NCBI GenBank assembly: GCA_000934665.2 | Contig: JYFJ02003926.1 | Span: forward strand, 1 to 36,380 | Direction: 5' to 3' | Source: Catajapyx aquilonaris | Taxonomy: Eukaryota | DNA: 36,380 nucleotides | Shown here: positions 26,825 through 32,002 of the stretch, one piece after another | Layout: each line of letters starts with the position of its first letter | How positions within the stretch are numbered: position 1 is the first letter of the stretch | Notes under the pieces: generated by a model | Seen by the model: the letters and a program-made list of their open reading frames with translations, nothing else | Database searches by the model: none | What the model was told of the DNA's origin: nothing | Program-made: the position numbers and the translations under genes

Positions 26825-27268
26825 ATGTCTGCTGCACTCAAGATAGTTGCGCTCGTACTACCGGTACTGCTGATGGTCCATGCTGCCTCAACGGATAGTG
26901 GTGGCTATGCACTTGCAGGTCTGTATACAATATCACGTTTGCACTGAATGTTTGTCAAAAGCGAGTTTTATATTCACTTATCATGGTTGGACCCAACATA
27001 TGAACCACTGTTTCGCATTTTACTTGGAATTTGTGTTGTCAGATTTTTGTTTGCATTCCCCCCATCACTTGTGCCTTGATATTATCTAAACTTTGTGACC
27101 TTTCCAGCTATAAAAGTACACGTCACATGCGATAAGTACTGCAAGACTGGAAATCCATTCGATCTGAACCCTATGGACGCTCGTTCCAGTGATATGAAGA
27201 GAGTACAGAAAAATTGCGACAACCTTTGCTCTGATCCAAAATACGAGCCAATTCCAGTCGAGAAGTAA
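26825..27268 (+). CDS. Small secreted cysteine peptide 1 (84 aa, CX3C-X24-CX3C)
   Basis: Exons 26825-26918 and 27108-27268, phase-1 intron CAG|GTCTGT...TTTCCAG|CT. MSAALKIVALVLPVLLMVHAASTDSGGYALAAIKVHVTCDKYCKTGNPFDLNPMDARSSDMKRVQKNCDNLCSDPKYEPIPVEK*. AATAAA at 27297 and 27342. Confidence 0.85.
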
Positions 27269-27419
27269 CAAGACGTGAAGATTACACAGATGGCGGAATA
27301 AAATGTGCGTCAAATCCAGACATGTGTGAGGGAAGAACCACAATAAAATAGCTGTGATTTGAAGCACTTGATCGCCTAGTGCCTCCCGCGCGACGCGTCT
27401 GAGAGCACCCGTTCTTCAT

Positions 27420-27535
27420 CTATGAACCCCCTCTAGATGGCGTTTCCGGACACGGGTTCCTCTGTGAAATATTTTTGTCTTGTTCCCCTCTATTACCCCT
27501 AGAAGTTTCTAAAGATAGCTCGGAAACACCCTGTA
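27420..27535. mobile_element. Tc1/mariner-type terminal fragment
   Basis: Ends GATAGCTCGGAAACACCCTG|TATA; no partner TIR found. Confidence 0.5.
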
Positions 27536-27559
27536 TATAATGTATAATAATGGATACCC

Positions 27560-27705
27560 GCATGATAGGCCTCCTTATGTGTAGGGGATCATATTTTCGT
27601 GTACCGTCTTTAATCATTGCCTGCGCTGTGTTGGAGTTTGTGGGAGGAAACAGGAGAACCCCGAGAAAACCCACGCTAACACGGAGAGAACCCGGAAATT
27701 GTAGG
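27560..27705 (-). mobile_element. SINE fragment with a V-domain-like core
   Basis: The minus strand reads TTCTCTCCGTGTTAGCGTGGGTTTTCTCGGGGTTCTCCTGTTTCCTCCCACAAACTCC, resembling the V-SINE core GTGGGTTTCCTCCGGGT.CTCCGGTTTCCTCCCAC. Confidence 0.6.
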
Positions 27706-29271
27706 ATCTGTAAGTTGGGATGCCAATTTTCCCCAATGTTAGTAAAAATGAATTGAGTCAGTTGGTTGTGTACTATTAACCGCAAAAGTAATGTCGCCAT
27801 GTTAGGTGATGCCGTCCGCGACTTTTTGTTTATCCGCCGCGTTCAGGGGGCACTTCCAGTAACAGTGCGACACTACTTCTGCGGTTAATAGTATCATCGG
27901 TACACGAATAATATGCTGTTGGATAATATTATTCAGTACAGTAGGTTTACTTGTATAGCAGTCTGGGATTTGGGAACTGATCTGACATGCTTGGATGATG
28001 GCTGGCAGCAGATGTATGAGGCTGGGATAACAGGATATCAGGCTCTGTCAAACCACTCCTCTTCTGCGGTCACTACATGACTTTGAGAAATTAGGCTTTA
28101 GCACTCTAGGTCGGTTTTTATTTTTTAAAGGAGTAGAGCCACAAAAGGCTAAATTCATCTAATAAAAGTTAGCGGCAGCGCTGTAGCTTCCGCTAAAATT
28201 TGCAGCTGTTTAGCGACAGCGACGCAGCGAAGTCAAGTGTTCTGTAAGCGGATTAGCTGTTAGTGAAGCAGATTTTTCGATTAGCTGTGCCCACCACTGG
28301 TGAATCATAAAGTCTGACTAGCAGGATACTCGTTCTTCTCACGGGAACTGACATATGATGAATTGTGTGAATGGTGGTAGTTTGTACAACCTGCAAATAG
28401 TGAGCTGAGGCAGAGGGTCTGAAATAGAGAAAACGCGGATGCTGCGTAATCTCCCTCACATCATATTTTAGTGACTTGCCAACCCACGTAACACAATTTG
28501 CACATTTATTGCTTAAAGAAAGGTCCCGAACATCAGGTACTCAACTGTGAAGAACGTGTCGTTAAGCAGCAAGTCCTTCACTTCACAGTCTTATCTCATC
28601 CCACACTATTAGAACACAAAATGTTTGTGCCTGCCATACTCCTGTGTATTGCACGCAGGGGTTTGCTGAATGCATCATGGTTAAAATAAAATAAGAATAG
28701 TTAAAGCTGCATTAACTAAGGTTTGAATCAAAATAATAAAAATTACCATATATAGATTTTTAGTATAGAAAAAGCCTTATATTTCTTGGTTTGAAAGAAA
28801 TATCGACATTTTTTCGGACATTCAATTTTAATTCTACATTTTGGCGATGCACGGATAATCCATACCCGGATAATAATCAGGAGTGCAGGTACTTATTAAA
28901 GACTACTATATCCACAACCGAAAATCGAAATAATCCCAAATTCTGAGCACTTAGACTTTTTTAAAAAAAGTGCAGTTTTCGGACTTTTTCCTGAATCTGT
29001 AGCACCTAAGTTATTGGTGGGCCAAGTTTCAGACCTCTCAGTAGTCCGGAAGTGGTTTAGGTAGCCGTGGCATACCTAAGGACTCGCTTTCCCACTTTGA
29101 GAAAGTAAGTATAGACGAGAGATTCCAGGGGCAATCAGCCAGAGAGTGGGAGGTGGGGAGAATGGTGATGACTCCCATACATAAAATGCACTCCCACACA
29201 AATGTACATGCTGAAATACAGCTTGGAGCATCGGTTATCCGAACACCGATCAACCGAACCATCGGTTAACC

Positions 29272-30897
29272 CAGCGGTTTTCAAACTGGGGTACGCGAAC
29301 ACAATTTTGGGGGGTACGCGAAAGATTTCGTGCAATGGCGTCCGTTCTCTACATTTGTGGGGGGAAATGAAAAAAAAAATGTGGGGAAAAAAATAAACCC
29401 TGGTATCTTACGAACGATAAGTGGAAAACATGTGGAAATATCGAGAGGAGAGATGGGAGGGAGGGTTTGGCTGGAAGTGAGAAGCCTATTCACGTCGCTG
29501 TTGAGTCAAAACCGCGTATAACTCGCTTTTCGACCGATTTCGGATTTTTGATTCTGAAAATGAGGCATTTTGCGCTGCATCTGCCATCAAAACGGCGTAA
29601 TTTTTTCCCCAATAGGAGCGAAGATATATGGCCAGGTTAAAACATTAACTCTCAATGCAAGTGTGTAATTTTCTTATTCAGTTTTTTTTGCTCTCCTGAA
29701 AAATGAGTATTACTCAAAGTTACACCACGTAACTTTGAATAATACTCATTTTTCAGGAGAGCAAAACCCGTTCGCTTAACCCAGGGCTTCCCAAACTTTT
29801 TGTCGAATTTTAAATTTGTACCCCCATTCACACCCTACCATATAATACGTAGTATTGTGAGCACTAATTATTACCAATTAGTGTGATGGGTGTGCTTGCT
29901 TGCTTGCGCACAAGTGGTCAATGATTGGGACAAGTGACGTCAATTTGAGCATCAAGTCGTTTTCCACAGTCGTCGATTCCAGTATTTCGTTTTGATGAAA
30001 AGCCGTCTTCACATAAATAGGTTGTGGCAAATGGAATCAAGTGTTTCAAAGCACAGCCTGGGGCCATTGCCAGGATAATCGTCGATGCTTTTCCGCCCAA
30101 AAGGCGACGAGGGTTTTATTATGTCCAAATTCCTGTTTGAAATTTCCATCTGTCGAAATTTTGATAATTTTTTTCTTGGTCCTGTACCGACATGTTTGGA
30201 ATTGGCAATAAAATATCAAACGGGTGTTCCTTATCCAATTCACTCACGTGTCCATTTCGGGAAAATGGTTCCTAAACTGCTGAGCCAGTTGTAGCACTAT
30301 AATCACTAACATATCTGGGAGTAAGTGGGCAGTTGTTTTGCACCTGGGAGATGTGTATAATTTGCAGTTCCAAGGTCCTGCATATTGATCCCACCTGGAA
30401 GTAATTTATAGCGTCGCTGTGGAGTCAAAACCACGTAACTTTGAATAACACTCATTTTTCAGGAGAGCAAAAAAACTGAATAAGAAAATTACACACGGGC
30501 ATTGAGAGTTGATGTTTTAACCTGGACCATATATCTTCGCTCCTATTGGGCAAAAAATTACGCCGTTTTGATGGCAGATGAGCGCAAAATGCCCCATTAA
30601 TTTACCAGAATCAAAAGCCCGAAATCGGTCGAAAAGCGATTTACGCGGTTTTGACTCCACAGCGACGTGAATAGGCTTCTCACTTCCAGCCAAACCCTCC
30701 CTCCCATATCTCCTCCGGATATTTCCACATGTTCTCCACTTATCGTTCATATCCTTAGATACCAGGGTTTATTTTTTTCCCCCACATTTTTTTTTTTTCA
30801 TTTCCCCCCACAAAATGTAGAGAACGGACGCCATTGCACGAAATCTTTCGCGTACCCCCCAAAATTGTGTTCGCGTACCCCAGTTTGAAAACCGCTG
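29272..30897. mobile_element. hAT (Buster/Charlie-type) non-autonomous element with ~450-bp inverted arms
   Basis: CAGCGGTTTTCAAACTGGGGTACGCGAAC ... GTTCGCGTACCCCAGTTTGAAAACCGCTG; arms ~29272-29723 and ~30435-30897. A second hAT end, CAGGGCTTCCCAAACTTTTT, lies inside at 29782. Confidence 0.9.
29930..30250 (-). pseudogene. hAT Buster/Charlie transposase C-terminal remnant
   Basis: Frameshifted pieces WIRN.., ISTDGNFKQEF..LVAFW and ALKHLIPFATTYLCEDGFS (hAT dimerisation-domain signature PFxTTYLCExGFS). Confidence 0.85.
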
Positions 30898-31427
30898 ATA
30901 TACTTCATGGTACTTCTATGCACTGATTTGTTTTATTGTCTTCGATGCAGCATATGGCAGGTGCAGTGAGGCAGCGTTTTATGTACCGGTATACTGTACA
31001 GTTCAATTAGCATAGTATGTTACCATAATATGCAATTACGGCTGTTACGCAGTTTTATATTCAGATATTACAAGAAGCCCTCACGACTCACCCAATTGTA
31101 AATCTAAAATGGGGATCCCGTAAATGAAAATACAATAATTTTCACACTTCAAATGATAACTTTGTAGTTTATGCCGTCAAATAAATAGTAGGCCTATACC
31201 AAAGTTTTCTAGCTGCTTGATGCACTTGTACTGTACACTGACAATCAAGGTAGAGCGGTGCACTTTGATTAATGTTTTATTATGCGACTGTACATACGTA
31301 ACATATAACTATGTGAGTGTAATAAAAAAGTACAGTTCTTCCGCCAATGACAGTGATGCAGGTGTATGTCGGATTGCATCATCATCAAACCCACAACACA
31401 GCACCTGCCCCGGTCTCTTTGGGTGCG

Positions 31428-31434
31428 TATAAAA
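31428..31434 (+). promoter_or_regulatory. TATA box of peptide gene 2
   Basis: GCGTATAAAAGG, 118 nt upstream of the ATG. Confidence 0.8.
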
Positions 31435-31545
31435 GGAGCTGATCTGTCCAATGAGAACCCTTATTCTGTTTCATCCCATCTATCTGCTTTGACTTGGCTG
31501 CTGAATATAGAAGACAACGGACACGACCATTTGCAGGAGTTCAGG

Positions 31546-32002
31546 ATGTCTTCTGCATTCAAGATAGTTGCGCTCGTACTACCGGTACTGCTGATGGTCC
31601 ATGCTGCCTCAACAGCTGAGAATGGTGCGCGTCCCCCAGGTCTGTATACATACAATATCACGTTTGCACTGAATGTTTGTCAAAAGCGAGTTTTATATTC
31701 ACTTATCCTACATGGATCCAAAATATTAACCACTTTTATACTTTGAATTTGTGTTGTAAGATTTTTGTTTGCATCCCCCCCCCCCCATCAATTGTGCCTT
31801 ATTTATATTATCTAAGCCTTGTCACCTTTCCACAGGGATTCCAAGATCATATTTGCACGCCACATGCGATAAGTACTGCAAGACGCGAAATCTATTCGAT
31901 CTCAACCCTATAGATACCAGTAATATGAAGAAAACACTGAAAGATTGCAACAAAGTTTGCTCTAGTCCAAAATACAAGCCAGTAAGTACATCCAAGAAGT
32001 AA
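31546..32002 (+). CDS. Small secreted cysteine peptide 2 (86 aa, CX3C-X22-CX3C, cationic)
   Basis: Exons 31546-31639 and 31836-32002, phase-1 intron CAG|GTCTGT...TTCCACAG|GG. MSSAFKIVALVLPVLLMVHAASTAENGARPPGIPRSYLHATCDKYCKTRNLFDLNPIDTSNMKKTLKDCNKVCSSPKYKPVSTSKK*. AATAAA at 32030 and 32075. Confidence 0.87.

Follow-up and report, generated by a model that had tools for sequence, protein, structure and literature searches.

A small arthropod family of predicted secreted four-cysteine hairpin peptides, with a mature region that very probably diverged under positive selection

The closest described systems are small helical hairpins. C1–C4 and C2–C3 bonds are reported for plant alpha-hairpinins, kappa-KTx and flf14/vil14a (PMC7191063), and convergence has been proposed for the hairpins of plants, scorpions and cone snails (PMC11722136). 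The plant alpha-hairpinins, with the motif C-X3-C-Xn-C-X3-C, are described as serving defence, with charges and modes of action that vary (PMC7191063, PMC11591084), and drosophilid immune effectors are reported to show gene turnover and selected sites in their mature peptides (PMC12962805). Here we describe two adjacent genes, W1 and W2, in a 36,380-nt stretch of the Catajapyx aquilonaris genome (assembly GCA_000934665.2, contig JYFJ02003926.1, positions 1 to 36,380; hereafter the window). They belong to a small arthropod gene family whose products, as judged from gene models and a predicted fold, are probably secreted four-Cys hairpin peptides. Comparison of the family members indicates, with high confidence, that the mature coding region diverged under positive selection. 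An earlier sequence-only reading of the window had put forward such selection from W1 and W2 alone.

Two genes and their relatives

W1 and W2 are head-to-tail two-exon genes within the window, both on the + strand, of 84 codons (ATG at 26825, stop at 27268) and 86 codons (ATG at 31546, stop at 32002) respectively; the span of 27108..32002 given in the sequence-only reading begins at exon 2 of W1 and misses everything before it, from promoter through exon 1 to intron. Both N-termini carry a hydrophobic stretch closing on V-x-A, a putative signal peptide whose cleavage was judged by eye. The gene features are as follows.

26235..26708, + strand: W1 upstream region, copied with each gene copy; ~9% divergent from that of W2, with 15 gaps, and taken as a near-neutral yardstick
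26709..26824, + strand: W1 TATA box (26709) and putative 5′ leader
26825..26918, + strand: W1 exon 1 coding part, predicted signal (about codons 1–20, by eye) and hypervariable 11-codon tail
26919..27107, + strand: W1 phase-1 GT-AG intron, 189 nt; the equivalent junction is spliced in paralog B1 (run X5)
27108..27268, + strand: W1 exon 2 coding part, C-X3-C-X24-C-X3-C core, two predicted helices, net charge +1
27269..27372, + strand: W1 3′ untranslated region (UTR), AATAAA at 27297 and 27342; homology to W2 stops at 27372
30898..31545, + strand: W2 upstream region, TATA box (31428) and 5′ leader
31546..31639, + strand: W2 exon 1 coding part, predicted signal peptide and variable tail
31640..31835, + strand: W2 phase-1 intron, 196 nt
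31836..32002, + strand: W2 exon 2 coding part, C-X3-C-X22-C-X3-C core, net charge +8, the sole strongly basic copy
32003..32105, + strand: W2 3′ UTR, AATAAA at 32030 and 32075

Splicing of two paralogs, B1 and probably R (described below with the neighbouring receptors), was seen in X5, a public run whose kind is not on record and which comes from a different sample and study. A 290-nt contig of this run links the two exons, its pieces standing 81 letters apart, exactly as predicted for spliced B1; its loose end matches B1, and the joint is absent from the DNA runs X1 and X2.

Searches of the same genome returned 6 protein matches, 10 matches to promoter plus exon 1 and 7 matches to the 3′ UTR, all of them lower bounds. 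The family comprises 7–8 copies, 5 with intact frames, resolved as W1, W2, W3, B1, R, B2 and B3 plus a fragment on contig C17275 with a single mismatch to B2 in 250 bases. Contig C1656 carries W3, with ~11 kb of inserted sequence interrupting exon 1, the intact B1 and, on the opposite strand, the divergent R, with three coding exons and 109 codons. B2 (C8639) has an intact frame without a TATA box, and B3 (C8185 and C12075) holds an LTR (long terminal repeat)-like insertion in its intron and an in-frame stop between the first two Cys. We infer the contig joins C2093–C1656 and C8185–C12075 from shared element ends. Copies are born and die within the family, and traits of conotoxin-like families are present, namely a conserved signal and conserved non-coding parts, tandem copies and pseudogenes.

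Several further observations concern individual copies. B2 and B3 (G000:C8639, C8185) are embedded in a tandem array of another predicted secreted gene, Gly/Thr-rich and mucin-like, and an upstream insertion common to both displaced the TATA box. The putative W2 contig has about half the depth of W1 in X1 and X2, which are runs of one sample (18 vs 37 and 14 vs 24); two alleles or presence on one haplotype may account for this, contig depth not being decisive. In W1, W3, B2 and B3, the first 30–50 nt of the 3′ UTR (window 27269–27300 and paralogs) keep the reading frame open up to a shared stop further on and look like the third coding exon of R, whereas W2 and B1 have indels there that break the frame; this suggests that the family ancestor had a longer C-terminal tail. 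All 24 of 24 Cys codons are TGC, which we rejected as a special feature: TGC is also prevalent in two neighbouring exons of G protein-coupled receptor (GPCR) genes (15/20), and silent divergence is low.

Divergence of the mature region

Codon models were fitted to the core of W1, W2, B1 and B2, the four genes that are both intact and alignable, over 34 codons free of gaps; R was omitted as too divergent. The ratio of replacement to silent rates (dN/dS) was 4.3 under M0 (p = 0.005 against 1). M2a was favoured over M1a, with twice the log-likelihood difference (2dL) at 15.5 (p = 4e-4) and ~64% of core codons at dN/dS ~10; addition of exon 2 of W3 and B3 gave p = 2e-4. The signal was robust to F3x4, equal frequencies and double-nucleotide changes, recurred in M8 vs M8a (p = 8e-5) and had the same M2a/M1a statistic under alternative topologies. 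None of 24 plain and none of 26 recombinant null simulations reached 15.5, and 0/24 plain ones passed 5.99. Between B1 and B2, 15 of the 34 codons are amino-acid-changing and 0 are synonymous-only. The excess of replacement changes expected by the sequence-only reading is thus found in the four intact genes, once further paralogs enter the codon alignment.

Rates were also compared with those of non-coding DNA, in a joint model with branch lengths common to intron plus 3′ UTR and exon 2. For the four genes, replacements accumulated at 7.2 times the non-coding rate (p = 3e-15), or 5.8 times with the intron alone as yardstick, and silent changes at 1.07 times (equality p = 0.90); the six-gene tree agreed with these rates. 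The silent rate of exon 2 matched the intron rate in the pair, the four genes and the six genes (p = 0.64–0.97), and tree length was 1.93 for exon 2 vs 0.25 for the non-coding parts. The faster divergence of exon 2 than of intron and UTRs, which the sequence-only reading had pointed to, is therefore borne out as a matter of replacements. Gene conversion, which it had named as a possible cause of the conserved non-coding parts, does not account for the pattern: conversion of these parts alone would leave silent sites ahead, and since they are not ahead, conversion is not needed.

Mean divergence of the four intact genes was 0.05 in the 5′ leader, 0.12 in the signal and 0.35 in the exon-1 tail, then 0.03 in the first 60 nt of the intron and 0.11 in its remainder, 0.31 in exon 2 and 0.05 in the 3′ UTR. 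The fast zone opens at the predicted cleavage site inside exon 1, falls at the donor and returns in exon 2; fast change tracks the protein, not exon boundaries. The first 60 nt of the intron (window 26919–26980 and 31640–31705) are almost invariant across copies and slower than the rest; they are possibly a regulatory element or a short conversion tract.

For the pair itself, most of the earlier description was reproduced. Signal codons 6–22 are indeed alike (0/51 nt differ), as are the UTRs (4/116 differences from TATA to ATG, 5/103 in the 3′ UTR). From the first Cys to the PKY.P motif, 14 amino-acid-changing and 3 synonymous-only codons were counted among 39 aligned, under all four alignment settings, with one 2-codon in-frame indel. 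The four Cys, DKY, FDLNP and PKY are retained in both genes, and the charge counts after residue 20 are again 9 K/R and 9 D/E in W1 and 13 K/R and 5 D/E in W2. The intron had also been called near-identical, which is incorrect: it has 18 mismatches in 182 positions and 5 gaps (~90% identity), complete identity is limited to its first 62 aligned nt, and its divergence resembles that of the upstream region (41/458). UTRs and intron start are slower than neutral and therefore exaggerate the contrast that had been drawn between coding and non-coding DNA. Nor is the 14:3 ratio proof of selection; it lies near the neutral expectation, because replacement sites outnumber silent ones 3.3–4:1. In the pair core, ~90–94 replacement sites carry 16 base changes and ~23–27 silent sites carry 3 (dN/dS 1.37–1.72). 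Set against non-coding DNA, the pair was moderately significant, at 16/90 vs 59/640 (p = 0.014), with p = 0.025 in the joint model and p = 0.10 for the intron only. Positive selection, as first argued from the pair, is supported for the family and not by the counts of the pair.

A number of results speak against selection or lessen its force. The dN/dS excess of the pair alone was not significant (Fisher p = 0.46–0.31), and maximum likelihood on W1/W2 gave p = 0.19 for the core and p = 0.51 for all of exon 2. With 26 stricter columns p was 0.014 for M2a and 0.15 for M0; leaving out one gene at a time gave p = 0.0004, 0.026, 0.040 and 0.061; and 4 of the 26 recombinant nulls exceeded the nominal 5% level (5.99). 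By group, the codon model was not significant for W alone (p = 0.41) and gave p = 3e-4 for B alone; the dN/dS of the B group is inflated by a deficit of silent changes relative to the intron (p = 0.04). B3 is a mosaic, with a W-type signal region in exon 1 on an otherwise B-type gene, and some exchange between copies has taken place. Finally, the likelihood code was a custom implementation, not PAML.

Predicted fold and possible roles

Every copy has four Cys, spaced 3/22–27/3 in six copies and likewise in R, and the Cys core spans 32–37 residues. From the exon-2 alignment of six sequences, AlphaFold2 predicted helices at 2–13 and 26–40, each with one C-X3-C (pLDDT 71). A word-indexed search with W1 exon 2, confined to proteins of 28–91 aa, gave 0 candidates; Pfam, PDB sequences and the ESM Atlas held no relative; Foldseek against PDB and viral structures found no fold relative, and the best Z in the wide VIA search was 4.2, to generic helices. 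Such empty searches are no proof of absence, as small peptides are often unannotated. The literature searched, outside subscription journals, contained no description of the hairpin family. A profile of the six exon-2 sequences, compared with 1.84 billion representatives, had 2 matches, both long repeat proteins with summed short stretches, which were rejected. The family is real and lineage-restricted.

The net charge of exon 2 is +1 in W1, +8 in W2, +3 in W3, +2 in B1, 0 in B2 and +2 in B3. A charge switch between the paralogs had been proposed: the high charge of W2 stands, but as a trait of one gene only, the other five aligned copies lying at 0 to +3, and 9 of 12 charge changes between W1 and W2 are upward (sign test p = 0.15). 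The likening of the Lys-Tyr pairs to the dyad of K+ channel toxins does not extend to the family, DKY and PKY being confined to the three recent copies W1, W2 and W3; the Lys before Tyr is replaced by Glu in B1 and in B2 and by Asp in R, and PKY is absent from all three. Across the six sequences of alignment A1 there is no variation at the four Cys, at the Tyr preceding C2 or at one Lys of the second helix. At the positions of the hefutoxin dyad, which we take to be Tyr5 and Lys19, on two helices and directly after C1 and C3, the peptides described here carry D/Q/T and D/N. It is the Lys-Tyr argument as first worded that lacks support, not channel activity itself: another Tyr/Lys pair may serve, and HelaTx1 blocks Kv1 without a dyad (PMC7262511).

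By analogy with the systems named at the outset, we tentatively favour a role in host defence, at a little short of an even chance. A predicted signal peptide of 18–20 residues would be removed, and the product of 60–90 residues would fold into two helices, each with one C-X3-C, held by C1–C4 and C2–C3 bonds on the precedent of hairpinins and kappa-KTx. The scaffold is fixed (four Cys, Tyr before C2, a hydrophobic loop start and a basic residue two before C3), and surface, loop length and both tails are recast upon each duplication. In host defence the peptides would bind a microbial or parasite protein that itself keeps changing; specific binding seems more apt than charge-driven membrane lysis, because all but one of the six aligned copies have a charge close to neutral. 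The fast divergence is likely to reflect an arms race with an outside target. Some findings count against this account. The AlphaFold2 model, from six sequences, has a pTM of 0.46; kappa-B-like promoter sites occur at chance level (122 vs 118 expected); and X5 has no contig matching W1 or W2 itself, and no RNA data set is listed with W1, neither of which we used as evidence. Mussel MgCRP-I displays a like evolutionary pattern without antimicrobial, insecticidal or cytotoxic activity (PMC4558851); because the pattern can accompany peptides that are inactive in assays, it names no function on its own.

Alternatively, the genes may encode reproductive or social signals (seminal, spermatophore or contact-pheromone peptides) under sexual selection or conflict, which we regard as rather unlikely. 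High dN/dS, mixed charge, tandem turnover and lineage restriction are typical of seminal proteins; here dN/dS is very high over about two-thirds of the core, charge is mixed, copies are born and die in tandem, and no relative was found outside the genome. All of this fits, but nothing specific points to reproduction.

It seems improbable that the products are oral, salivary or venom-type peptides acting on ion channels of prey or predators, a wider form of the K+-channel idea. The Cys motif and predicted fold are as in scorpion kappa-KTx and cone-snail peptides (PMC7191063, PMC11722136), a dyad is dispensable for block (PMC7262511), and a Tyr and a pair of basic sites are retained by all or nearly all of the six A1 sequences. 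However, both Lys-Tyr pairs are limited to W-type copies, the loop has 22–27 residues vs 8 in HelaTx1 (PMC7262511), a propeptide with a conserved cleavage site is lacking, and the host is not known to be venomous; that solved toxins are unmatched by sequence or fold is uninformative either way.

A non-adaptive origin, with relaxed or dying genes whose UTRs, signal and intron are held similar by gene conversion, is already disfavoured and very improbable. It would accommodate two broken copies, the many insertions, the mosaic exon 1 of B3, conflicting 5′ sites and a pair that alone fits dN/dS of 1. Relaxation, however, cannot push dN/dS above 1; exon 2 silent sites match the intron rate, the indels of intact copies all keep the frame and every Cys is kept, and simulated recombination never attained the observed statistic (0/26).

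Lastly, the cluster has five DMSR-like GPCR copies at its flanks, of which three are in the window (1585–9178) and two on C1656 (20863–22146 and 31710–33402); a neighbouring GPCR exon best matches insect DMSR/myosuppressin-type receptors (41–42% identity), from which the host was taken to be an arthropod distant from annotated insects, and a COX1 search added no resolution. In a second X5 contig, 358 letters separate the 5′ and 3′ pieces, the length expected for R once its introns of 268 and 82 nt are spliced out (708 in the assembly), but the same row also lists X1 and X2 contigs under one label, so that an intron-less DNA form is possible. The 30 loose letters at the 5′ side of the contig correspond to the sequence that precedes a donor at C1656:20641, which is spliced to an acceptor at 20206 on the − strand. 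The donor lies ~220 nt past the stop of a same-strand DMSR-like GPCR and leads into the 5′ leader of R; the contig extends 495 letters further, of which 30 were seen, and would enter the GPCR frame if colinear. The splice is either read-through or use of an upstream non-coding exon. That R is co-transcribed with the upstream receptor and that the peptides are ligands of the flanking GPCRs, as species-, sex- or self-recognition signals in a linked ligand–receptor locus, draws on these copies and this splice but is the least probable reading, since the GPCR family is scattered over many contigs (91 matching segments genome-wide), no hairpin gene was found near other GPCR copies in 20 stretches totalling 172,760 bases (2 motif matches; shuffles 0–3), four flanking GPCRs have no selected sites (M2a vs M1a 2dL 0; outer loops dN/dS 0.6–0.8), and B2 and B3, in another array, are on short contigs that carry no GPCR. 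Should the read-through reflect a ligand–receptor unit, the locus would supply ligands for a receptor family that is orphan and has expanded greatly.

The surroundings hold other elements. The GPCR copy at window 1585–2465 is frameshifted, and ankyrin genes are interspersed on both contigs. A divergent frame on the − strand (window 5483–6049 and 2537–2728), which from its sequence we take to be Elongin-B-like, was duplicated with the GPCR unit. A near-perfect palindromic element of 1.3 kb (window 23722–25045, arms 97–98% complementary) has an end that recurs at window 1–202, and an element at window 14755–18358, whose flanking direct repeats are identical and at least 300 nt long, is likely a recent LTR insertion. 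On G000:C5905, a frameshifted, mitochondrial-type ND2-COX1 stretch is likely a nuclear copy. Two features lie beside the genes:

29272..30897, no strand assigned: intergenic non-coding element with long terminal inverted repeats; its right end adjoins the start of the W2 duplicated unit
35372..35822, + strand: upstream region of W3, the third copy, cut at 35823 by an inverted-repeat element; the rest probably lies on contig G000:C1656

Comparison with known systems

The plant alpha-hairpinins (EcAMP1, MBP-1, VhTI, Tk-AMP-X2) have in common with the present peptides the four-Cys motif and, as predicted for the latter, a helix-loop-helix and secretion; their Cys are often the sole conserved residues (PMC7191063, PMC11591084). 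Their working motif has a loop of 4–20 residues (PMC11591084), a range that the loops of 22–27 residues described here exceed. The present peptides differ further from plant alpha-hairpinins in their arthropod host, in a predicted product of 60–90 residues and in having no Pfam or PDB sequence match. Scorpion CS-alpha/alpha kappa-KTx (kappa-hefutoxin 1, OmTx, HelaTx1, LaIT5) and cone-snail flf14/vil14a have the Cys motif and the two-helix fold modelled here in common with them (PMC7191063, PMC7262511, PMC11722136), but are venom-derived and short-looped, with 22–27 residues in all, whereas here the core alone has 32–37.

Hairpin Loop Peptides (HLPs) of fungi and Hemiptera, found in some arthropods, resemble the family in length (~85 residues) and in its predicted signal peptide, two helices and nested disulfides (PMC13357843). 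They have six mirror-placed Cys and an N-terminal GP, in contrast to four Cys in every copy here, and are 58–75% hydrophobic with 0–2 charges (PMC13357843), compared with 33–46% and 8–17 charges in exon 2. Conotoxin-type peptides and mussel MgCRP-I likewise show a signal that is conserved beside a hypervariable mature part, together with fixed Cys, pseudogenes and positive selection (PMC4558851), but have another Cys frame and fold, and the present family lacks a conserved pro-region with a dibasic site.

As an evolutionary pattern this is already well known. Strong selection implies that the peptides meet a changing partner, which makes them good candidates for new bioactivity. Natural variation offers a ready comparison set of five peptides that range from acidic-neutral to +8. 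On the modelled fold, the family would work like a CS-alpha/alpha hairpin and be filed in none of the families compared. It would add to the two-disulfide helical hairpins an arthropod version, independent and with a long loop; in plants, scorpions and cone snails the scaffold serves defence and channel block.

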